From Patescibacteria group bacterium (GTDB lineage Bacteria > Patescibacteriota > Minisyncoccia > Phycocordibacterales > EsbW-18), in contig JBBTTA010000002.1 of the NCBI GenBank assembly GCA_038064475.1, positions 19,195-83,194 on the forward strand: a stretch of 64,000 nt of DNA. Direction: 5' to 3'. The position numbers were made by a program, and so were the translations under genes. This document shows, piece after piece, positions 17,711 to 40,327 of this stretch (its first letter is position 1; each line of letters starts with the position of its first letter). The notes under the pieces were generated by a model. That model had not been told where the DNA came from, did not search any database, and worked only from the letters and a program-made list of their open reading frames with translations.

Positions 17711-17802
17711 ACCGTGATGTCTTCTATTGTAGCAAAAAACACAAAACTCCGCGGTAGCGGAGTTTCATGATAGGTCTTGTATCGATAAGCCGAATTCTGT
17801 AT

Positions 17803-17835
17803 CCAGCTCCAGTTTTTTCAAACTGGGGCTGGACG
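17803..17835. repeat. Hairpin module CCAGCTCCAGTTT-tttca-AAACTGGGGCTGG, copy 1 (P18 position of rnpB)
   Basis: 13-bp stem with one G-U on the plus strand (C-A on the minus-strand RNA). Four copies in the window. Confidence 0.6.
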
Positions 17836-18066
17836 ACAGGCATCTATCTGGGATGAAAATTACTTTTCACCTCAAGCGGCACTTCTAACGTAAATCAAAG
17901 ACTAACGTTAGACTCGGCCTTGCACGTAGATAAGGATTTTGCCGTTTCACCTCTCATGTCACCATGGGAGTTCACCTCACCGAAGCGAGGGCCAAACTTC
18001 TTTCGTTGTTTGGCGTCACTGTTCGCACCTCTATGCTTGCGCACGACGGGTGTTACCCGCTACCGT

Positions 18067-18102
18067 CCTCCAGCTCCAGTTTTTTCAAACTGGGGCTGGA
18101 CG
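18067..18102. repeat. Hairpin module copy 2 (between P4 and P7 of rnpB)
   Basis: Stem identical to copy 1 and extended by GTC/GAC. Confidence 0.6.
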
Positions 18103-18119
18103 TGTTCGGACTTTCCTCA

Positions 18120-18148
18120 CCCAGCTCCAGTTAAAAACTGGGGCTGGG
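18120..18148. repeat. Hairpin module copy 3 (P3 position of rnpB)
   Basis: CCCAGCTCCAGTT-aaaa-AACTGGGGCTGGG. Confidence 0.6.
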
Positions 18149-18195
18149 CGCGCCTGTCTAATACAAGGTGAATATACTATACCCTATTTTTCGAC

Positions 18196-30288: not shown

Positions 30289-30636
30289 TTGTTAATAGCT
30301 CAAAAGGCTACCATTTCTAATATGGCCATTACTCTAGCCCAATTCAAAGCATCACTTGGCAAACTTGCCGACGGTCTCTCCGACGAGGAGATCCAAAAGA
30401 GGCTCGATTTTACATACCGATTTGCGGAGGGATTTTATGAATGGTTTTCGGTAAGGAAAGGCACCGGGGTTGAAGCAATTACCGGTGCATATGTGAATGA
30501 TGCGATGGCAGATAGTGAGCGTGATGCTGTACGAATAAAGGCAATGAGAAAGGCCGTGCATCTTTTGCCGGAAGCAGATGCAGAGTTAAAGCAAGAAGCA
30601 AAGAAACATGAACAAAGATACCCCTACAAAAACTGA
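30289..30636 (+). CDS. Hypothetical protein (115 aa) immediately upstream of, and overlapping, the recombinase gene
   Basis: Complete ORF. Possible accessory or directionality factor, by position only. Confidence 0.4.
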   Translation: MLIAQKATISNMAITLAQFKASLGKLADGLSDEEIQKRLDFTYRFAEGFYEWFSVRKGTGVEAITGAYVNDAMADSERDAVRIKAMRKAVHLLPEADAELKQEAKKHEQRYPYKN

Positions 30637-32377
30637 TGAGCCGCTCGGGATTGGAGAGACACGGGTAAGTGATACTCGCCAGTTAGATGGCTCGCATGAG
30701 TTTCAAGAAAGCGAAATCAGAAGATTTGCCGCCAATCTTAAAATTGAAATAGCGGCAGATGGCTTTTGGAGCAATACAGTTAAAGGAGACAGCGACGAGC
30801 GGATGACAATGGCTACTGCGCTTGCGTATATTGATGAAAGAATAAAAAACAACAAGCGTCGTGTGACGGATTATTTTTGTTATAACATTGAGCGCTTCAC
30901 TCGTGGTGGACATGCTATGTATGACTTTATGAAAGGCGAGTTGAAGAAACGGGGAGTAAGGATGAGAGATGTAGCAGGAATCATCCAGCCGGATAAAAAT
31001 ACGATGGAAAACTTGGGTATGGATTACAAATGGAGTAACTATTCACCCAGTGGCACTCAAGAGTTGCTTGAAGCAGATAGGGCCAAAGACAACAGACGGG
31101 ACATGCTTACTCGCATGATTGGACAGGAGGTCATTAACGCTCGTCAGGGTTATGCGGTGCACCCTGCACCTGATGGAATGATAAACAAGCGTGACCGCTA
31201 TCACTCTGAGGGTAAACGTAAGCGCCGGTCAACCCGTTATCGAGATCCTGAACGTGCTCCTTTCTACGAAAAAATGTTCAAGCTACGAGCGGAAGGGCAA
31301 ATGTCCGACGAAAAGATAGTGGAAGAAATAAATAAGGATGGCTATCTCTCCAAAGTCCGAACACGCTGGAGTAAAGACAGCAAGACGGAGATCGGATACA
31401 CCGGCGGTATTCCACTTACGGTAAAACAATTACAAGCAATTATTCAACGACCCATATATGCTGGGGTCAATTACGAGGTATTTACGCTCTGGAAACCAGT
31501 AAGGGCTGTTTACGCTGGCTTGGTGGAGATTGATAGATGGAATAAAGCAAATCGTGGCAGATGGTTTATTGAGGAGTTGCCCGACGGGCTATTGCAGATG
31601 CACCAGAACTATAATCCGGAGATACGGACACGAGATAACGAGCAGTACCCCTTCAAAGACGTAATCCTCTGCACTTTTTGCAAGGAATTAGAGGGAAAAG
31701 AGCGGCCATTTCGAGGCAGTGCTTCTCGAAGCAAGAATGGTAATCATTATCCCGCCTATCATGCTGACCATAAAATAAACGGAGTCAGACACAAACGAAT
31801 CGGGGTTAATAAACATGTCTTCGAGAAGCAGGTTGAGGAATTCGTAACCGATCTACAGTTTCAGCCAGAACTGTTGAAGAGCTTTCAATTGGTGCTCATG
31901 GATACATTCAACCAGAAGCAGGCAGGCACTATTGAGGCGGCCACCGGTGCAGAAAAGAGGGTTATCGATCTACAGGAACAGAAGCAGGCGGCTACCAAGG
32001 CCTATATTGCTGCCAATGCTGTTGGTGACGAAGACCTGATGAGCGACATCAAGGCAGAGCGAACTCGATTGGACCAGTTACTAAAGGTCGCCCAGGGTCA
32101 CAGAGATGAACTCGAGGTGGATGAGAGGGATTTGGACGAATTCGTGTGGCGAGTGAACTGGGTGATGGAACACCCCCATGAATTCCTATTGCGTGCAGGT
32201 AGCAAACAACAAAGACGAGCTTACTTCTCGCTCATGTTTGATGAGTTACCAACCTACCAAGACGTATTAGATGGAACACCAAAATTGTCTTGGATTTTCA
32301 GGCTGGATTCGGAAAAACTCCCTGAAAAAGGGTCTGAAAAAAGTTTGGTGCGCCGGGGAGGATTCGAACCTCCGTAG
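30608..32377 (+). CDS. Large serine recombinase (integrase)
   Basis: Resolvase catalytic region GETRVSDTRQ (Ser nucleophile). ERFTRG matches the DRLGR-type motif. KKRGV. Long C-terminal recombinase/zinc-ribbon region with Cys/His cluster CTFCKE...HYPAYHADH. Its stop overlaps tRNA-Tyr by ~30 nt. Confidence 0.75.
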   Translation: MNKDTPTKTDEPLGIGETRVSDTRQLDGSHEFQESEIRRFAANLKIEIAADGFWSNTVKGDSDERMTMATALAYIDERIKNNKRRVTDYFCYNIERFTRGGHAMYDFMKGELKKRGVRMRDVAGIIQPDKNTMENLGMDYKWSNYSPSGTQELLEADRAKDNRRDMLTRMIGQEVINARQGYAVHPAPDGMINKRDRYHSEGKRKRRSTRYRDPERAPFYEKMFKLRAEGQMSDEKIVEEINKDGYLSKVRTRWSKDSKTEIGYTGGIPLTVKQLQAIIQRPIYAGVNYEVFTLWKPVRAVYAGLVEIDRWNKANRGRWFIEELPDGLLQMHQNYNPEIRTRDNEQYPFKDVILCTFCKELEGKERPFRGSASRSKNGNHYPAYHADHKINGVRHKRIGVNKHVFEKQVEEFVTDLQFQPELLKSFQLVLMDTFNQKQAGTIEAATGAEKRVIDLQEQKQAATKAYIAANAVGDEDLMSDIKAERTRLDQLLKVAQGHRDELEVDERDLDEFVWRVNWVMEHPHEFLLRAGSKQQRRAYFSLMFDELPTYQDVLDGTPKLSWIFRLDSEKLPEKGSEKSLVRRGGFEPP

Positions 32378-33414: not shown

Positions 33415-33933
33415 TTAGTTATTCCCTGTTAATGCGTTTTGTATTTTTGTTCTTACACTTTCCAAATCTTGTAGTTCAGGTGTTTTTATATGAAGAATAG
33501 GGATTTCTGCACCATTGAGAATGTGGTTTACCACTACGTCTCGTTCTTGTCGGTCAGGTCGCTCATGGGACTTGTCATCAAGCTCGATGGCTAGTTGAGG
33601 TAGAAAGCTAATCTTGTCACACAAGACGAAATCAACAGATTTTTCATCAATGTGCCTGAAAGCACCAAACCAATTTTGTCCGAGTACTTTATGGTCGAGA
33701 ATTGTTGCGAGGTGGATTTGAGGAAAAACGTCGTACCGAGCACCAACCAAAGCAAGAAGTATCTTAAAACACTCTTGTTCCGAGGCAGTCATAATTATCT
33801 TTTTTTTGTACTGATATTCTCTGCGTTTTGGAAATTTCCAATCAACCAACACACCAAGAATCGCGAAAAGAACAATTATAAATATTCCCCAAAAAAGAAA
33901 TGGCTTTATGAACTCAAAAAGGTCTATACTCAT
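33415..33933 (-). CDS. DUF2726-family (NERD/PD-(D/E)xK-fold) protein with N-terminal TM
   Basis: Pattern ECFKILLALVGARYDVFPQIHL...VDFVLCDK...LAIELDDKSHERPDRQERDVVVNHIL matches DUF2726. Confidence 0.5.
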   Translation of the reverse strand: MSIDLFEFIKPFLFWGIFIIVLFAILGVLVDWKFPKRREYQYKKKIIMTASEQECFKILLALVGARYDVFPQIHLATILDHKVLGQNWFGAFRHIDEKSVDFVLCDKISFLPQLAIELDDKSHERPDRQERDVVVNHILNGAEIPILHIKTPELQDLESVRTKIQNALTGNN

Positions 33934-34366
33934 ACCCCCATTCTACCACCCACCCCCCACGCCTGTTTTTGAATCTGGTATGAAAAAGGCGTGCACACCG
34001 AAGTGTGCACGCCTGAGGTTTTGCCCGTTAGGGCTTGGGGTCCCACGGCATCTTGATGTCGAACCCGCCCGGGATTCGAACGGTCGTGTGGCCGCCCTTG
34101 AGCGTGCCGTCGGGGTTCACCCCGAAGGTGTCGTGGAGGTCGCCTGTGCCGGTCGGAGAAGGTCCGATCGGTTGGATCCCGAAGTCGCTGGGCTTGGTGG
34201 GATTCCCGAGAGGGATGAACGGCTTGAATTCGTCGCTCATACTACTTTCCTTTCTGGAGCAATGCTCCGAAGTGCTTCTGTCTATATAATAACAGACATT
34301 TTAAACATTGACAATAGTCTGAAAAACAGTACTTTATAGGAAGAAGTAAAACGACAAGGGGGTTAT

Positions 34367-34663
34367 ATGAGCGACAACTTTCTGAGCAGGGATGAATGCG
34401 TTTGTGGCGCAAGTACATCAGTGTGTGGGGGGCGAATTGTCTTTGACCACGCAACTCACCGAGGGAGGATTTATCACGAGAGGTCAAAAGACCACGTCTT
34501 GAGATCAGAAATGTCGGAAACGTGGGTATGCTCCCGCTGTGGTAGATACAGCGGGTCGTGCGAGCCGGACGAACCTCATCTGTGGTATTGCTCCACAGAT
34601 TTGTGCAATCGTTGCAAAAGACCGAGCTACAATTGCGGGTGCCATGTTGGCGAGCCATACTAA
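34367..34663 (+). CDS. Cys-rich putative zinc-binding small protein (98 aa)
   Basis: Multiple CxxC pairs (CVCG...CGG, CSRCG, CNRCK...CGC). Confidence 0.4.
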   Translation: MSDNFLSRDECVCGASTSVCGGRIVFDHATHRGRIYHERSKDHVLRSEMSETWVCSRCGRYSGSCEPDEPHLWYCSTDLCNRCKRPSYNCGCHVGEPY

Positions 34664-34721
34664 TCTCAACGCGTTATCGCTTCCAATTTTGGAGGCGATT
34701 TTTTTAATCAAACAAAAAACC

Positions 34722-34747
34722 GCCCGCCTTGGCATGCCAAGGCGGGC
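34722..34747 (-). terminator. Hairpin GCCCGCCTTGGCA-TGCCAAGGCGGGC, U-tract on minus strand
   Basis: Perfect 13-bp palindrome. The plus strand has the A-run before it. Confidence 0.45.
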
Positions 34748-34808
34748 CCCTGCGTCAGTTTCGTCTCTGCCGGAGGCTTTTCATTTATATAAAATCCAGA
34801 TAAGAGAC

Positions 34809-34905
34809 CCTTTGACAGCTACATCGGATAGAATATACTTATACTAAGATCACGAATGGAAAAGATCACCCTACAAGGTTTCGTCCTTGTGGGGCCTTTT
34901 CTTTT
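34809..34905 (+). ncRNA. Promoter-sRNA-terminator module 2
   Basis: TTGACA-N16-TATACT, transcript AAGAUCACGAAUGGAAAAGAUCACCCUACAAGG-uuucgu-CCUUGUGGGGCC + UUUUCUUUU. Confidence 0.35.
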
Positions 34906-34924
34906 AAAGTTTAGATAAAATAAT

Positions 34925-35015
34925 CCTTGACAGGAAAAAAGTAGGTAGTACCATAGGCCTATCACGAACAGAAAGAGTGCCCCGATGAGGTTTTGTCCTC
35001 ATCGGGGTCTTTCTT
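34925..35015 (+). ncRNA. Promoter-sRNA-terminator module 3
   Basis: TTGACA-N16-TACCAT, transcript CCUAUCACGAACAGAAAGAGUGCCCCGAUGAGG-uuuugu-CCUCAUCGGGGUC + UUUCUUUUUU. Confidence 0.35.
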
Positions 35016-35544
35016 TTTTCTCAACCTTATTTCTGCTATCACCAACAAATCTGGTGTATGACAAAAAATCCGTGCGCTTTAAAAGTCCGGAATATTTTTT
35101 CCTATTTGGAACCATTAGTGCAAGGAGCTTCTTTTGGCTAAGCAGATAATCAACAAGACAATAAAAATCGCCATCCCCACTAACGATAAGGATTTTTTCA
35201 CAGTCATTGATGTGAATCATCGTATGCAACACCAGTTCTGCATCCACGTTTCCCTTTATCTCTCCATCTGGTATTTCAAATGTTGGCTTAAAAATACAAA
35301 TATAGCCGTTTTTCTGAAGATATTTATATAACCCTTCATTGCCTTTTACATATCCAATACAAAGAAAAGCTTTTTCAATTGAATATTTATCTTTGAGGTA
35401 GACACGGAACCGCGCAAAATCTAGTTTCCAACCTTGTTTTTGAACTCCAAGATTTAGATTCTGACTATCAATAAAAGCAAAGTTGTTCGCTCGCATCCAA
35501 CAATCGTACTCTGCGGAGCTAAAGAAAATATAAAGATTTCTCAA
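34999..35544 (-). CDS. NYN/LabA-like (PIN-fold) ribonuclease domain protein
   Basis: AFIDSQNL, GNVDAELV and the hallmark LIVSGDGDF. TTG start at 35544, or internal ATG. Confidence 0.65.
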   Translation of the reverse strand: MRNLYIFFSSAEYDCWMRANNFAFIDSQNLNLGVQKQGWKLDFARFRVYLKDKYSIEKAFLCIGYVKGNEGLYKYLQKNGYICIFKPTFEIPDGEIKGNVDAELVLHTMIHINDCEKILIVSGDGDFYCLVDYLLSQKKLLALMVPNRKKYSGLLKRTDFLSYTRFVGDSRNKVEKKERPR

Positions 35545-35550
35545 AACAGC

Positions 35551-35583
35551 AAAAAGAAAAGGCCTCGCGTGAGCGAAGCCTCT
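35551..35583 (-). terminator. Intrinsic terminator GGCUUCGC-UCAC-GCGAGGCC + UUUUCUUUUU (minus strand)
   Basis: Read directly. It ends the upstream ORF-free region just before the NYN gene. Confidence 0.5.
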
Positions 35584-36252
35584 TCAGTATTGCGCCGCCG
35601 AAGCGGGTGATACTGGAAAAAGAACTGGTGAGTCTATGACTGACCTCGTGAGCGTACTCTCGAGGATAGACTGAAGCGTTGGGAACGTTGAGCGGGGCCT
35701 ATCGCTCTAAGATGATTTTTTCGCATCGCGACCGAAGTCGTGAGCGTCGTCCTGGGTTGGACCTCATCTGTTCCCTACGAGTCTCGCTGGAGGGCGAGAC
35801 CATTACCGAAGATTTCATTGAACCGAAGTTCGCTGAAGTTCTTCGTTTGCCTGTAAGACGATGGCCGTTCCCGAAGGATTGGTATCGCTGTGTGATGTGT
35901 AGAGGATTTTGAGTTCTCATAACACCACACAAGAAAGTTTTCGATTTCACCGCCGAAGCGACGAAGTGCTAGGTCCGAAATCTCTCCCCGGTGCATTGGA
36001 ACTGAGTTTCCCGTTTTACCGAGTTACTCTCCCATGTTCCCTTGGCTTTTACACGTTCGCTTCGTACAACCTCCGTTGTCGATTGAGGTAAGCGATCCCG
36101 CGGAGGGTTCGCACACATCTCGTCGATTTTCGGAAGCTTCCGTTGCGGCTTTGGGGACGACATGCACTGCCGTATCCCCTATCCGTGTGGTCGTCGCACG
36201 TCAGGCGATCAAATTTCCCTCGCGGGAGTCCGATTGCCAGTGCGCTCTAACC
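35584..36252 (-). ncRNA. Candidate large structured non-coding RNA (~0.7 kb; up to ~1 kb if it extends to 36580)
   Basis: No ORF of >=100 aa on either strand over ~1 kb. The minus strand has six C(UUCG)G tetraloop motifs at plus-strand CCGAAG positions 35586-35950. Candidate promoter TTGACA-N16-TATACT on the minus strand at 36260-36287. Terminator at 35551-35583. No family assigned. Confidence 0.3.
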
Positions 36253-36587
36253 TACCGAGGAGTATACGCGAAATGTATCCATTGTCAATTGGTTGGATAA
36301 TTTCTAAATAAAAATAACATCACGTCAAATCACCACTCCCTTCTTCTTTTGAAAAACACAGAACCTATCAGCTGATAGGTTCTTCCGTACAGCGCCGTCG
36401 CGCTTCCCGGGGTTTTTCAAAAAAGAAGAAGCTCGTTTCCACGTTATACATATAAAATCGAGATAAAAAGATGTTTGACAATAAACCAGAGAAGACTAGA
36501 CTATACTTACAAACCAAACGGCTTCGGCCTTCCCCACAAGGGATACAATGGGGTTCATAAGAACTCTCCCCGTAAGGGGTTACAAAG

Positions 36588-36619
36588 AAAAACTCATGCA
36601 AACAAATGCATGAGTTTTT
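36588..36619. terminator. Perfect palindromic terminator AAAAACTCATGCA-aacaa-TGCATGAGTTTTT overlapping the last codons of the MazF-like gene
   Basis: Read directly. T-tracts on both strands. Confidence 0.55.
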
Positions 36620-37004
36620 CTTTTATATTTTCAAAATCCTCTTGCGAAATATTTCCAATTTTATACTTAAAGCGCCTTACATCTATAAGTCGGATTTGCG
36701 AAAGAATTGCGTTATTTAAAACACCATTTAGAAATAAAGAAAAATAGAAAGGGCCTTTCTTGATTTGTTTTGTTACTGGTACACAAACACATACATTACG
36801 ACCGAATTTTTTAATCACAATGATTGGGCGTAAAAACTGCTCTCCTTTTCCATCTTGTTCATGACCAACATTCACACCAAGTGCACACCACCAAACCTCA
36901 CGTTCATGAAAGAACCGAGTGTTCTCCTGAAAATGAATATCTTTTTTCACTAGGTTCCATCCATCAAAATTCTTAAATATCATTCCTATATGGTATGACA
37001 TCAC
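36594..37004 (-). CDS. MazF/PemK/Kid-family endoribonuclease toxin-like protein
   Basis: EREVWWCALGVNVGHEQDGKGEQFLRPIIVIKKFGRNVCVCVPVTKQIKKGPFYFSL...AILSQIRLIDVRRF..KIGNISQEDFENI follows the PemK pattern (RGdiw.vdl...G.E..k.RP.lVis...vPlTs....p..v.l...g....S.vl.dqirtidk.Rl). No antitoxin ORF is evident upstream. Confidence 0.6.
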   Translation of the reverse strand: MMSYHIGMIFKNFDGWNLVKKDIHFQENTRFFHEREVWWCALGVNVGHEQDGKGEQFLRPIIVIKKFGRNVCVCVPVTKQIKKGPFYFSLFLNGVLNNAILSQIRLIDVRRFKYKIGNISQEDFENIKEKLMHLFA

Positions 37005-37043
37005 CCATAAAGTTTATCTCAAATAAAAGGCTATACTATCTGC

Positions 37044-37664
37044 ATGCAAACATTCCCATTCAAGAAACACAAAGAGTTTACTGTGTTCAAAAAACTCAAC
37101 ACACCAGCGAAGGTGCAGGATTTTGTGAATACGTTGTCCGTGAATTTTGAAAAGGATGGGGAAACGTGCAACTCCCCTCTCTATGTTTTGAAAAATAAAA
37201 GCGCGCACTGCTTTGAGGGCGCGCTTGTGGCGGCGGCCACACTGTGGTATCACGGGCGGCCGCCACTTCTTCTTGATCTTGAAACAGGATTAAACGATGA
37301 ATCACATGTCATCGCACCTTTTAAAGAAAACGGATTGTGGGGAGCGATAAGTACAACAAATCATGCTGTGTTGCGTTATCGCGAGCCAATACACAAAACA
37401 ATCCGCGAACTTGTGCTCTCTTACTTCCATGAATACTTTCTCGATACAGGAATAAAAACACTCAAATCATTTTCAACAAAGCCACTCGACCTTACTCTTT
37501 TTGATGACGAGTGGCCCATCGCTGAATATCCTGTCTGGGGCATTCACGATACTCTCGTTGACGCGCCCCACAGCCCTATCGCGCCAGAAAAAGCGCTCAA
37601 AAACCTCCGTCGCGCAGACCTAATAGAAATACAGGCTGGAAAACTGACAGTGGAGAAGAAATAG
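37044..37664 (+). CDS. Transglutaminase-like/papain-fold putative cysteine peptidase (206 aa)
   Basis: Candidate Cys-His-Asp arrangement (NKSAHCFEGALVAAATLWYHG ... HVIAPF ... D). Tentative. Confidence 0.35.
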   Translation: MQTFPFKKHKEFTVFKKLNTPAKVQDFVNTLSVNFEKDGETCNSPLYVLKNKSAHCFEGALVAAATLWYHGRPPLLLDLETGLNDESHVIAPFKENGLWGAISTTNHAVLRYREPIHKTIRELVLSYFHEYFLDTGIKTLKSFSTKPLDLTLFDDEWPIAEYPVWGIHDTLVDAPHSPIAPEKALKNLRRADLIEIQAGKLTVEKK

Positions 37665-38067
37665 TTACTCCCGAACAATAATTTTAAAGCCTCCGTACGC
37701 CATCTTTTTCATATCGAATGGCATATTGTTGGTTTTCTTCTTATTCTTTTTCTCGTACTCTTTCATTCCATCCATAATTTCTTTATTGATTCTGTTTCGG
37801 TCCGCGCGAGATTTGTACACAATCCATGAGAAGACAACTATCTCGTTTTTCTTCGCTTTCGTGAGCTTTGGAAATGCAAGTGACCACGGTGCACGCATGT
37901 CATCAGCAAAACACTCGCGATATTCGAGCGCGCCACGCTTCATCCACATATCACGGCCTTCTTTCGCCATACGTTTGTACACATTGAGTTTTGTCTTCGG
38001 AACAGTAAGAACAAACCCATCTACATAATTTCCTTCTACTTTTTTCTTTGATTTTGTTTTTTTCATA
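37665..38067 (-). CDS. DUF1428-family protein
   Basis: YVDGFVLTVPKTKLNVYKRMAKEGRDMWMKRGALEYRECFADD resembles DUF1428. Start placed at MKKTKSK. The ORF track extends to 38138. Confidence 0.45.
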
Positions 38068-38089
38068 GTGTTGATATTAGAAAATACTA

Positions 38090-38398
38090 TTAACGAGCAG
38101 CCGAGAGAAATATAACGATATATATCACAACAAAACATGAAAAATATCCGACCGTCTTTGCAAAAAACGTGAGCGCCTCTTGTTTATTGCCATCAAGGTA
38201 CATACGCAATGGTTGATACCCGAAGAGAAATGCCATGATAGCAACCGACAGAACAAGTAATGAGAGCATCATCATGGGAATAACAATCGTATCTTCCGAC
38301 CCCTGTGTGGCATCTACAACCGTACGTATGAATAAGACAATTCCCGCGATATACACTGCCGCACCCACCGCATTAAAAAACGGATTGTTTTTAAACAT
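38090..38398 (-). CDS. Hypothetical membrane protein (102 aa, 3 TM)
   Basis: Complete ORF, hydrophobic. Confidence 0.35.
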   Translation of the reverse strand: MFKNNPFFNAVGAAVYIAGIVLFIRTVVDATQGSEDTIVIPMMMLSLLVLSVAIMAFLFGYQPLRMYLDGNKQEALTFFAKTVGYFSCFVVIYIVIFLSAAR

Positions 38399-38419
38399 AT
38401 GTACAGTATAGCAAAAGGG

Positions 38420-40327
38420 CTATAACGAAACGGTGAGAATAGAGAGAAGTTTTTTGAGGCTGATACTTGCGCCTGCAACAACTGAGTCACCGCCACCGTA
38501 GTACACGAATATCTTCCCTTTGTGCACGGTTGCACCACACGGAAAGACAACGTTAGGAATTTGACCTTCGAGTTCATATTTTTCTCGTGGCTGCATGATG
38601 GCAGATGATGTGCGCGAGAGTACACGTGTCGGATCTTTGAGGTCGAGGAGTACAGCACCAACGCGATAAATGCGCGATTCTGAAACGCCGTGGTATAAAA
38701 GTATCCAACCGTGCTTCGTTTTTATTGGTGGACATGCAATACCAACCTTTTCACTATCCCACATACCAGGACGTGGCGAAAGTACTTGAAAACGGTTTGG
38801 TAATCGGCGGTTCTTGAAAATAAGCGATGGCACGAAATCCGCTGACACCATGTTGTCGAGTCGGTGGAAGATGAGATATTTTCCATCCACTTTTTCAGGG
38901 AAAAGACATGCGTCTTTGTCGTCCACGTTCTCCGGCGTGATAATCTGCGGGTCTGACCAACGCCAACGTCCAGCAATAAAATCATTCTCTTTGACGTGTG
39001 AAATAGCGACTGCGGGTGGCTGTATACCGTTGTACGCCGTGTAGCACATGTAAATTGTGTCATCTATCTTTGTGAGACGCGGATCTTCACATCCAGAGTT
39101 GCCGTTCTCAACTCCTTTATGTTCAAAGGATGTGCGTGGAACATATATTGGCTCTTCGCCACGATACGTAATTGTTGTTCCATTTGTACTCTTCGCGTGT
39201 CCAATGACGGATGTGTTATCGTCCCCCATCGCACGGTACAAAATGTGTGTCGTATTCTTGATGCGGATTGCCGCAGGATTAAATGTCGCTCTCTTTTCCC
39301 ACGAACGCTCGGATGGAATGATTAACGGATTTGTATCAAAACGCTCAACCAACTCATCCATCGCTCCTTTTTTCATGCTATTCAAAAAATGCGCGAGATG
39401 GATATCGACACGACAACATGTCGTGTCAGCGGCACCGTAGTAGATGTGGAGCGTTCCTTTTCGTATGGTTGCGCCCGATGGAAACACAATATTCATCACT
39501 TGCCCAAACTTTTCATATGTCTCTGTGGGCGTGAGAAATGGCCCATGCGTGCGTCCGATAATGTTTTTCGGATCATTGAGGTCAAGAAGTACTGCTTCAA
39601 TACCAAACACCATCTTGTCGGTACCATAGTGGCGTATGTGCGAGTAAATCAAAAGCCAACCGTGGTTCGTCTTCACTGGTGGCGCACCAATCTCAATGTG
39701 ATCTCCTTCTTCGCGCTTCAAATCAATGACGTGCGTATCAATCTCTTTTTGCCACTTCTCCCAAAAATGTGGTGACCACAAGTCTTCAATCCGATCGAGC
39801 ATTGCAATTGATGTTTTCACTGGAGGACTGTCGGTGTGCGCTGAAAAGAGTACAACGTACTTGCCATTTATCTTTTCAGGAAAGAGCGTCATTGCTTTTG
39901 CGTTGAATGGCGTTACGAGATGCTTCTCTTGTATCGTCTTCATGTCCTTCGACACAGCAACAGCGATGCGAATACCATCTGCAGTGAACGGATACGTGCC
40001 GAGTGCGGTGTAGAAGATATAGTACGTGCCATCAATTTTTGTGACACGCGGATCTTCACATCCAAAACGCTCCCAATCATGCTCCGGAGCGATGAATTGC
40101 TCGCGTTCGTTGAAGTGCGTATCGTCACGCCCGCGCGCGATACCAATCGTTGAGATGCGCATATGCGAACCCTCGTAGTAAATCTCTTCCGACATCGCGC
40201 GGTAAAGCGCAATGTGCGTGCCACGATATGATGTTGGACACCAATTAAAAACTGCATAGGCCTCCCACGGATTTTGTTTTACCGGACTCAGTATTGGATT
40301 GTGTGGTGAACGTGCAACAGTGAACAT
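38420..40327 (-). CDS. Tandem GH130-like (DUF377 beta-propeller glycoside phosphorylase/hydrolase) protein
   Basis: Two copies of the GCEDPR(V/L)TKIDGT(Y/I)Y..YTA motif and the YRAMG/YRA.G pattern. Confidence 0.6.
   Translation of the reverse strand: MFTVARSPHNPILSPVKQNPWEAYAVFNWCPTSYRGTHIALYRAMSEEIYYEGSHMRISTIGIARGRDDTHFNEREQFIAPEHDWERFGCEDPRVTKIDGTYYIFYTALGTYPFTADGIRIAVAVSKDMKTIQEKHLVTPFNAKAMTLFPEKINGKYVVLFSAHTDSPPVKTSIAMLDRIEDLWSPHFWEKWQKEIDTHVIDLKREEGDHIEIGAPPVKTNHGWLLIYSHIRHYGTDKMVFGIEAVLLDLNDPKNIIGRTHGPFLTPTETYEKFGQVMNIVFPSGATIRKGTLHIYYGAADTTCCRVDIHLAHFLNSMKKGAMDELVERFDTNPLIIPSERSWEKRATFNPAAIRIKNTTHILYRAMGDDNTSVIGHAKSTNGTTITYRGEEPIYVPRTSFEHKGVENGNSGCEDPRLTKIDDTIYMCYTAYNGIQPPAVAISHVKENDFIAGRWRWSDPQIITPENVDDKDACLFPEKVDGKYLIFHRLDNMVSADFVPSLIFKNRRLPNRFQVLSPRPGMWDSEKVGIACPPIKTKHGWILLYHGVSESRIYRVGAVLLDLKDPTRVLSRTSSAIMQPREKYELEGQIPNVVFPCGATVHKGKIFVYYGGGDSVVAGASISLKKLLSILTVSL

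Follow-up and report, generated by a model that had tools for sequence, protein, structure and literature searches.

How is a MazF-type toxin kept in check where no antitoxin gene lies beside it? The question is raised by a MazF/PemK-family toxin gene in a stretch of 64,000 nucleotides (nt) from a Patescibacteria group bacterium (NCBI GenBank assembly GCA_038064475.1, contig JBBTTA010000002.1, positions 19,195 to 83,194 of the forward strand), hereafter the window; positions are those of the window unless another locus or replicon is named. MazF serves as the standard example of a type II toxin, and a mazF gene found 'solo' is usually dismissed as an orphan. The explanation favoured here, at somewhat better than even probability, is that the gene belongs to a toxin-antitoxin (TA)-like pair in which a small RNA (sRNA) takes the place of MazE, acting through a 3' antisense overlap and a 5' domain that would stabilise the RNA and/or bind the toxin. 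The features of the locus are as follows.

36475..36480, plus strand: -35 box (TTGACA) of the predicted sRNA promoter, from the sequence; the family promoter matrix has TTGAC at -35 to -31
36497..36502, plus strand: -10 box (TAGACT) of the same promoter, from the sequence, after a 16-nt spacer; the family -10 box lies at -12 to -7
36509..~36624, plus strand: predicted sRNA of about 116 nt, fold z = -7.5, with its 3' end at the U-run after the terminator
36509..36519, plus strand: unpaired 5' leader ACAAACCAAAC, with CAAAC duplicated; the consensus in the family is ACAAAU (6 nt)
36520..36529, plus strand: hairpin P1, GGC-UUCG-GCC, identical to the family consensus, with one exact match in the window
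36532..36542, plus strand: hairpin P2 of unit 1, CCCC-ACAA-GGG, from the predicted fold
36544..36579, plus strand: second, diverged unit with leader UACAAU (36544-36549), P1' (36550-36567) and P2' CCCC-GUAA-GGGG (36568-36579)
36580..36583, plus strand: UUAC, the opening 4 nt of the stretch UUACAAAG that separates P2' from the core terminator
36584..36623, plus strand: palindromic bidirectional intrinsic terminator with a 17-bp stem, flanked 5' by an A-run and 3' by a T-run
36594..36624, no strand assigned: sense/antisense overlap of sRNA and toxin open reading frame (ORF), 31 nt, from the sequence
36594..36983, minus strand: MazF/PemK-family toxin gene, 129 amino acids (aa), from Pfam PF02452 and the homologue alignment

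The start of the toxin gene was placed at ATG 36983 in accordance with the homologue alignment and most gene callers; alternative upstream starts are ATG 37001 and GTG 37004, and the reading frame from its first start codon (36594-37004, minus strand) encodes 136 aa. The only Pfam match of the protein is PemK_toxin (PF02452; E 9.5e-13, 48.7 bits against a cut-off of 23.1). Against the NCBIfam MazF equivalog it scores 32.8, with a threshold of 120, so it is not an orthologue of E. coli MazF, and no PADLOC defence model matched it. Genes identical to it are found on contigs from well H41 of the Hainich aquifer (ENA ERZ1292619 and others). A profile of the toxin family was built from 27 members and searched against the PDB; the nearest solved relative is B. 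subtilis MazF/EndoA (4MDX, 4ME7; E 3e-8). The catalytic residues R25 and T48 of the B. subtilis protein (4MDX) align with the invariant R52 and with T71 of the family, the latter found in 90% or more of the 27 members, and the segment 'EQIRTID' aligns with 'SQIRLID'. An AlphaFold2 model of the toxin has a mean predicted local distance difference test score of 75.9 (84-92 in the core), and the top 50 PDB matches of this model in Foldseek are all MazF (E ~1e-5, template modelling score 0.6-0.7). The modelled structure has the MazF/Kid/CcdB-type SH3-like barrel fold. Specific to the subfamily is an extra N-terminal helix (residues 6-19) with invariant W9 and K13, followed by H26, E29 and W31. Sequence-specific endoribonuclease activity and inhibition of growth would be expected of such a protein. 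The GC content of the toxin module is below that of its surroundings.

A protein antitoxin was sought in the flanks of the gene and among its relatives. The divergent gene at 37044-37664 (plus strand) begins 60 bp from ATG 36983 and 39 bp from GTG 37004, which leaves no space for a MazE upstream of the toxin. A Pfam scan of all small ORFs flanking the toxin in the window gave no antitoxin-like match. Across 76 toxin loci a small ORF lies upstream on the same strand in about 12; ten such ORFs were scanned with Pfam and none passed the threshold, the only sub-threshold MazE_antitoxin match reaching 17 bits (cut-off 24.7). Clustering of the neighbouring protein genes showed that they differ in size and orientation from locus to locus, and no neighbour protein family recurs in more than five of the 76. 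A protein antitoxin in the flanks was rejected on these two grounds, the lack of a Pfam match above threshold and of a recurrent neighbour family. The adjacent, normally upstream antitoxin gene in the same operon that characterises type II MazEF systems is thus absent from the locus. The first-pass annotation of the window, made from the sequence alone, had stated that the toxin has no cognate protein antitoxin and too little upstream space for a MazE-like ORF; the 39-60 bp and the absence of a conserved partner in the window flanks and at the 76 loci agree with both statements, and the homology check for a small antitoxin ORF in the flanks, made here with Pfam, found none.

What does lie beside the gene, on its 3' side and on the opposite strand, is the predicted sRNA. 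The promoter TTGACA-N16-TAGACT agrees with the consensus at 10 of 12 positions. Promoter-like sites number 6 in the 5-kb region, with 8.3 +/- 3.0 expected; as the window promoter alone is at chance level, its significance comes from comparison with relatives. Applying the promoter-to-start spacing of the family to the window would place the transcription start at A36509, 7 nt past the -10 box. For the predicted RNA (36505-36630) the folding energy is -45.8 kcal/mol, with z = -7.4 relative to shuffled sequences. On its minus strand the terminator encodes the last nine codons of the toxin (KEKLMHLFA) and the TGA stop codon (36594-36596), and the last four bases (AAAG) of the UUACAAAG stretch fall within the 17-bp terminator stem found by the scan. 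The overlap of sRNA and toxin mRNA would reach about 43 nt if the mRNA ends at the shared terminator.

The comparison was made in steps of increasing scope. In a protein search the toxin subfamily gave 275 matches at E <= 1e-5, the nearest with 58% identity, and at least 580 toxin loci were confirmed in species-representative genomes, almost all of them of Patescibacteria/candidate phyla radiation (CPR) lineages. With positions 36470-36640 as query, nhmmer found a match just past the toxin stop codon and on the opposite strand in more than 30 loci. Eighty toxin loci, mostly from Patescibacteria/CPR, were then examined: the convergent sRNA element stands beside the toxin in 79 of the 79 that could be assessed, the 80th lying at a contig edge. 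A covariance model of the 5' module of the sRNA, searched in 624 kb, gave 73 matches, all at toxin 3' ends; further matches were confined to loci that contain two toxin matches or two neighbouring copies of the sRNA. Among metagenome contigs the 16-mer ACAAATGGCTTCGGCC adjoins a convergent toxin gene in 71 of 128 instances, and the remaining instances are mostly chance matches in GC-rich coding DNA that lack P2; the window holds an element of this type in single copy. A phage origin was considered and rejected, the eight matches to ACAAATGGCTTCGGCC in viral contigs having neither a second hairpin nor a toxin gene and being attributed to chance. The genomic context of the module is highly variable, and in some genomes it is present more than once (L052 and L066 belong to one metagenome-assembled genome, MAG). 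The variable context, like the lower GC content, would fit TA-like evolution.

Throughout the family the sRNA is about 75-90 nt long and consists of leader, P1, P2, an A-rich linker and a long terminator. It begins with the near-invariant sequence ACAAAUGG-CUUCGG-CC. Among 80 parsed sequences the leader is ACAAAU in 63, ACAAAC in 8 and AUAAAU in 5. P1 is GGC-UUCG-GCC, with the compensated variants GCC/GGC, GGAC/GUCC, GUCC/GGAU and GCUC/GGGC; P2 has 4-10 bp and is highly variable (54 distinct stems in the 80 sequences), its loops being mostly GNRA or UUCG. A MAFFT alignment of whole sRNAs misplaced P2 and was replaced by per-sequence folds and an alignment to the covariance model. Folded singly, 65 of 75 sequences form exactly three hairpins. 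The model-fitted alignment is biased towards the structure, but the folds of single sequences, obtained independently, agree with it; pairing holds in 99.4% of its cells, compared with 82% in shuffles and at most 61% when the partners are slid. Compensatory changes were found at 8 of 10 pairs, with 97 double-change cells (26 in shuffles): all seven pairs of P2 show them, and of the P1 pairs one is compensatory (7 of 63 distinct rows have C-G or A-U for G-C), one changes on one side and one is invariant. G-U pairs fill 11 cells, with three or fewer non-pairs, and together with the GNRA and UUCG loops they fit the sRNA strand only.

The promoter is conserved along with the structure. A matrix from 144 unique sRNA-toxin loci, with the A of ACAAA as +1, has a -10 box at fixed distance (T-12 in 129, A-11 in 127 and T-7 in 129 of the 144), TG at -15/-14 (84 and 90 loci), T-1 in 109 loci and TTGAC at -35 to -31 (T-34 in 123). 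The predicted sRNA promoter is of the extended -10 sigma70 type, at a fixed distance and with a pyrimidine-purine start. The toxin stop codon lies within the terminator hairpin of the sRNA in 69 of 75 loci, which makes the sRNA 3' end antisense to the last ~30 nt of the ORF; the median distance of the sRNA start past the stop codon is 49 nt, and across the family, provided that the toxin mRNA too stops at this bidirectional terminator, about 40 nt of it have the sRNA as their antisense. The 5' module has a mean pairwise identity of 0.81 and the toxin coding sequence one of 0.58, and the consensus frequency of the first 16 nt of the sRNA (0.888) equals in practice that of the best 16-nt stretch of the toxin coding sequence (0.889). 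An sRNA-encoded peptide starting at the AUG in AAAUGG was rejected: at 15 of 74 genome loci and in the window the sequence reads ACAAACGG, with ACG in place of AUG, the frames downstream of AAAUGG vary in length, and the pairs covary as RNA. Rfam gave no match at the gathering threshold or at E <= 5 for the window, or at E <= 1 for eight consensus loci.

The sRNA of the window is a variant within this family. It scores 18.2 bits (E 0.82) against the family covariance model, a low value that is due to the lengthened leader ACAAACCAAAC and the two tandem units. Two P1-P2 units in tandem are likewise found at the closest relative of the window toxin (L221, 58% identity), and at two other near relatives the unit is single, with a P1 of the GGAC-ACAUA-GUCC type. 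Tandem forms comprise two leader-P1-P2 units (window 36509-36579; L221 599-669, minus strand), a duplicated P2 (L064) and two copies of the sRNA (L079, 1062-1206). These tandem units recall the repeat arrays of type III antitoxins. Four metagenome loci (L111, L117, L139 and L211) carry sRNAs with intact promoters and terminators beside only the last ~15-25 toxin codons. They look like orphan antitoxin RNAs left after deletion of the toxin, and sRNAs beside toxin remnants would be the decay pattern typical of TA systems. On the toxin side, a TATAAT-like box stands 6-12 nt before the toxin ATG, without a Shine-Dalgarno sequence, at L014, L016, L026, L028, L033, L058, L064, L066, L070, L084 and L088, which suggests that many of the toxin mRNAs are leaderless.

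Transcription of an sRNA in this position has been recorded for a homologue outside the CPR. A tblastn search of plasmids and phages found full-length homologues of the toxin in Nitratiruptor and Helicobacter plasmids, in the C. jejuni plasmid pVir and in CJIE4 prophages. The pVir gene at 30634-31038 (old locus tag pVir0047) aligns over its full length with the CPR profile (hhalign 99.4%, E 2e-21) at 33% identity and keeps the N-terminal helix (FDEWNEVKK; FDxWNxxKK). Convergent to it is CJpv3, a 77-nt sRNA (31119->31043) confirmed by Northern blot (Dugar et al. 2013, PMC3656092, Tables S5 and S12). Differential RNA sequencing (dRNA-seq) placed its start at pVir 31119 on the minus strand with a height of 16164; the start of the toxin itself, at 30608, has a height of 28 (PMC3656092). 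CJpv3 starts 81 nt beyond the stop codon and ends 5 nt after it. In its -10 box, its leader of 6 nt and its hairpins it follows the layout seen in the CPR, and the Nitratiruptor locus does likewise. The CPR covariance model found no match in the pVir and Nitratiruptor loci; homology of their sRNAs to those of the CPR is suggested by layout only. A leader, two hairpins and a strong promoter are present in Sulfurovum, Sulfurospirillum and Sulfurimonas MAGs (L049, L055 and L065), in pVir (L225) and in the Nitratiruptor plasmid (L226); in these Campylobacterota variants no terminator spans the toxin stop codon. The Campylobacterota copies indicate that the module crosses phyla and rides on plasmids and CJIE4 prophages.

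An RNA antitoxin has already been reported from the same plasmid. The antisense sRNA CjrA is reported to be the RNA antitoxin of a type I system, CjrA/CjpT, of C. jejuni 81-176 (Shen et al. 2016, Mol Microbiol 101:909; PMC10470494), and cjrA-RNA is an experimentally validated entry of TADB, as a type I antitoxin on pVir of that strain (PMC7826846). pVir0047 is the sole toxin-family gene annotated on pVir, and CJpv2, the other Northern-confirmed sRNA of the plasmid, faces an ORF of 41 aa. The toxin of the system, CjpT, is reportedly much larger than the known type I toxins. On this ground and by elimination, it is likely that CjpT/CjrA and pVir0047/CJpv3 are the same pair. Shared with the CPR module are then a full-length homologous toxin, a convergent sRNA with leader and hairpins, and the lack of a protein antitoxin gene; one difference is that CJpv3 ends 5 nt past the stop codon, whereas the CPR terminator spans it. 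The first-pass annotation had proposed that a convergent transcript, with its promoter at 36475-36502, runs antisense over the toxin gene's 3' end. This finds its counterpart in the relatives: the promoter is present and the arrangement recurs, with a family-wide promoter, covarying pairs, a stop codon within the terminator and, in pVir, an sRNA seen by dRNA-seq and Northern blot. The broader proposal of that annotation, RNA-based control of a type II-fold toxin, is the best-supported reading, with CjrA/CjpT as its probable experimental precedent.

The proposed mechanism is as follows. The minus-strand gene would encode a MazF/PemK-family endoribonuclease, and the near-consensus promoter on the opposite strand would make a stable, hairpin-rich sRNA that runs towards the toxin gene. 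The 3' domain of this sRNA would pair with the complementary 3' end of the toxin mRNA; as both RNAs carry the same terminator hairpin, the first contact would be loop to loop. The duplex may expose the toxin mRNA to double-strand-specific cleavage and 3' decay, or may leave a message without a stop codon, and with abundant sRNA little toxin would be made. The 5' module (ACAAAU leader, GGC-UUCG-GCC hairpin and second hairpin), which lies outside the overlap, probably stabilises the RNA and/or binds the toxin dimer, in the latter case as a mimic of substrate or product. A convergent, abutting or overlapping position without exception speaks for a role of the cis-antisense relation, as in the type I systems par, txpA/RatA and bsrG/SR4. 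Antisense pairing cannot account for the conservation of the 5' module. The sequence comparisons show the gene family, its conserved promoter, the structure of the RNA, the overlap and the lack of a conserved protein partner; toxicity, neutralisation and the assignment of the work to one or the other RNA domain are inferred.

Several points weigh against this explanation. A mechanism of antisense pairing only leaves the invariant 5' module unexplained, and the two RNAs overlap only within a terminator hairpin that is very stable on each of them, which is kinetically unfavourable for pairing. Between the sRNA 5' end and the toxin translation start no extra complementarity was found (-8.67 kcal/mol, with -8.59 kcal/mol for shuffled sequences), and a second pairing site of the kind known from par was rejected because the complementarity to the translation start equals that of the shuffled controls. 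The Campylobacterota variants keep the 5' module and lack the shared terminator; the RNA model of the family does not detect the pVir sRNA; and the equation of CjpT with pVir0047 is our own deduction. In the window itself the promoter match is by itself not above chance, and the sRNA is an atypical two-unit variant that reaches 18.2 bits only.

The 5' module carries an ACA core and co-occurs with the N-terminal helix that is specific to the subfamily. In a hybrid of types I and III, a MazF/PemK toxin family would have exchanged its protein antitoxin for a structured sRNA of a single unit, whose ACAAAU end and two-hairpin core may occupy the RNA groove of the toxin as a product mimic that cannot be cleaved, with the 3' antisense overlap as a second layer; this is a real possibility, of clearly lower probability than the general form of the explanation given above. 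If true, such a system would have arisen independently of ToxIN and would be a very widespread TA type in CPR/Patescibacteria.

Slightly less probable, at about one chance in four in our estimate, is a purely type III-like system in which the sRNA neutralises the toxin by direct binding. The leader and the P1-P2 core would be a pseudo-substrate or product mimic in the RNA groove of MazF, and the 3' overlap would reflect tight linkage and terminator sharing in compact genomes. The equal conservation of the first 16 nt of the sRNA and of the best toxin coding stretch fits this, as does the ACA core of the leader: B. subtilis MazF recognises UACAU (4MDX) and E. coli MazF recognises ACA (PMC7826846), and the predicted sRNA start is exactly the A of ACA. 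The extra N-terminal helix with its invariant W9 and K13, the tandem two-unit sRNAs of the window and L221, which recall ToxI repeats, the orphan sRNAs whose intact promoters outlast the toxin, and the retention of the 5' module without shared terminator in Campylobacterota point the same way. However, a protein-binding RNA would not need the convergent abutting position that is found in 79 of 79 loci as well as in pVir and Nitratiruptor, and known type III RNAs are upstream tandem repeats processed by the toxin, whereas the RNA considered here comprises one or two units and is equipped with a promoter and a terminator of its own. The depletion of k-mers in the toxin ORFs gave no hint of a recognition motif; a cleavage motif sought in this way was rejected as showing compositional effects only, ACAAA not being depleted.

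A TA-like pair is also preferred to a dedicated ribonucleoprotein or enzyme-substrate pair with a role outside TA biology, for instance a MazF-like protein that processes or chaperones a regulatory sRNA, which we consider improbable. The strict co-occurrence of gene and RNA, the conserved RNA sequence and the lack of a PADLOC defence model matching the toxin would suit such a pair. Against it stand the retained catalytic residues of a general mRNA interferase, the variable contexts, multi-copy genomes, plasmids and prophages, the decayed toxins beside retained sRNAs, which fit selfish TA dynamics, and the status of cjrA-RNA as a validated type I antitoxin in TADB (PMC7826846). More improbable still is a protein antitoxin that was overlooked, either unlinked or encoded by a very small or fast-evolving adjacent ORF. 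There is a precedent in the solitary MazF-mx of Myxococcus with its unlinked antitoxin MrpC (PMC4803016), and the small upstream ORFs at about 12 of 76 loci, with their one sub-threshold MazE_antitoxin match, could be cited in favour; but no neighbour family recurs, the 39-60 bp upstream in the window hold no antitoxin-like ORF, and the universal sRNA would be left unexplained. That the conserved element is a 3' untranslated structure on the toxin's own strand, with no separate antisense RNA, would agree with its position directly after the stop codon, where read-through toxin transcripts would hold its complement, but is very nearly dismissed by the conserved promoter at fixed spacing on the opposite strand, by GNRA/UUCG tetraloops and 11 G-U cells that are meaningful on the antisense strand only, by the toxin-strand terminator that precedes the element and by the dRNA-seq start on the antisense strand in the pVir homologue.

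The TA-like pair of toxin and sRNA can be set beside the established TA classes. In the type I systems par/Fst RNAI-RNAII (pAD1), txpA/RatA and bsrG/SR4 (B. subtilis) the toxins are hydrophobic peptides of less than 60 aa, with a convergent 3' overlap and a shared bidirectional terminator. The module has in common with them the convergent transcription, the 3' overlap and an RNA with a strong promoter of its own; it differs in that the toxin is a 129-aa MazF-fold RNase, the overlap consists of the terminator hairpin only, and no second pairing site was found. The RNA is complementary to the toxin mRNA, as in type I (31 nt over the 3' end of the ORF in the window; 69 of 75 loci in the family), its transcription having been seen in the pVir homologue only. 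The small (<~60 aa) hydrophobic toxin usual in type I is replaced by a 129-aa soluble MazF-fold protein; SymE is a known exception to that rule. With the type III systems ToxIN, CptIN and TenpIN the module shares the opposition of a MazF/Kid-related RNase fold and a structured RNA, and occasional tandem units (window, L221, L079). The toxin is, however, a member of PemK/MazF and not of ToxN/AbiQ, CptN or TenpN, and the RNA, usually a single unit, is encoded downstream in convergent orientation between a promoter and a terminator of its own, where theirs is an upstream repeat array. Binding and inhibition of the toxin protein by RNA is suggested here by the invariant 5' module alone. Type II MazEF/PemIK systems have the same toxin family, fold and catalytic residues; the module differs from them in having no MazE or PemI gene, in the extra N-terminal helix and in an RNA as its conserved partner.

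The pemK RNA motif (Rfam RF02913) is likewise a conserved RNA tied to pemK genes. It is labelled Cis-reg in a script that uses RF02913, and we take it to lie 5' of pemK. It was rejected as an identity for the sRNA, since neither the window nor eight consensus loci contained a match to it at E <= 1-5. In the literature no description was found of a MazF with an RNA antitoxin in CPR bacteria, or of the ACAAAUGG-CUUCGG-CC module and its breadth, and the CPR sRNA family appears to be undescribed. Among RNA-antitoxin systems the module counts as a variant, probably akin to the little-known pair CjrA/CjpT.

A whole MazF subfamily, found mostly in CPR bacteria (~1-Mb genomes) and also on Campylobacterota plasmids and in prophages, has an RNA and not a protein as its constant partner, and annotation of its genes as 'type II PemK/MazF toxin' is misleading. 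The RNA family, of short (~75 nt), covarying members and without an entry in Rfam, is a candidate regulatory RNA of CPR bacteria, for which, to our knowledge, hardly any sRNAs have been described. A little-noticed plasmid system of Campylobacter would be tied to a very large environmental family, and the module would offer a compact test case for the interconversion of TA classes, with a type II fold, a type I layout and possibly a type III action.

Of the immediate neighbours, the divergent gene (37044-37664, plus strand) encodes a protein of 206 aa with no Pfam, NCBIfam or PADLOC match, whose sequence (…AHCFEGA…SHVIAPF…) resembles a papain- or transglutaminase-like Cys/His protease; it is not conserved beside the toxin family. 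On the other side, the region between the sRNA promoter and the next stretch contains a long inverted repeat (36341-36433) of CTTCTTCTTTTGAAAAA and TTTTTCAAAAAAGAAGAAG around the perfect hairpin AGAACCTATCAGCTGATAGGTTCT. On the minus strand this hairpin is followed by GTGTTTTTC and is terminator-like (36383-36360); it may be a backstop for read-through from the toxin gene or the 5' boundary of a large non-coding RNA (ncRNA) unit.

That unit is a GC-rich (0.50-0.53) stretch of about 700 nt without credible ORFs (35556-36258, minus strand), a candidate large structured ncRNA. It has a promoter TTGACA-N16-TATACT (36288-36261) that agrees with 11 of 12 consensus positions, an intrinsic terminator (35585-35556), a minimum free energy of -263 kcal/mol (z = -5.4) and many UUCG and GNRA hairpins; it gave no Rfam match at E <= 5. 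A second GC-rich (up to 0.59), ORF-poor stretch at 33900-34990 has several promoter- and terminator-like sites on both strands, for example a minus-strand promoter at 34314-34286 leading to a terminator at 34014-33987, and a plus-strand promoter at 34812-34839 leading to terminators at 34869-34894 and 34979-35008. It is flanked by genes for a DUF2726 protein (33415-33933, minus strand) and an NYN-domain protein (34999-35544, minus strand). The first-pass annotation had linked the adjacent large ncRNA to control of the toxin. This link did not hold: nhmmer found no counterpart of the ~700-nt ncRNA in the 80 other toxin loci, and both it and the 33900-34990 region were rejected as parts of the system on the same search. 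Terminator-like sites are frequent in this part of the window (17 in 33500-38500, with 5.3 expected). Elsewhere in the window a bacterial class A RNase P RNA was identified at 17772-18167 on the minus strand (102.3 bits, gathering threshold 100).

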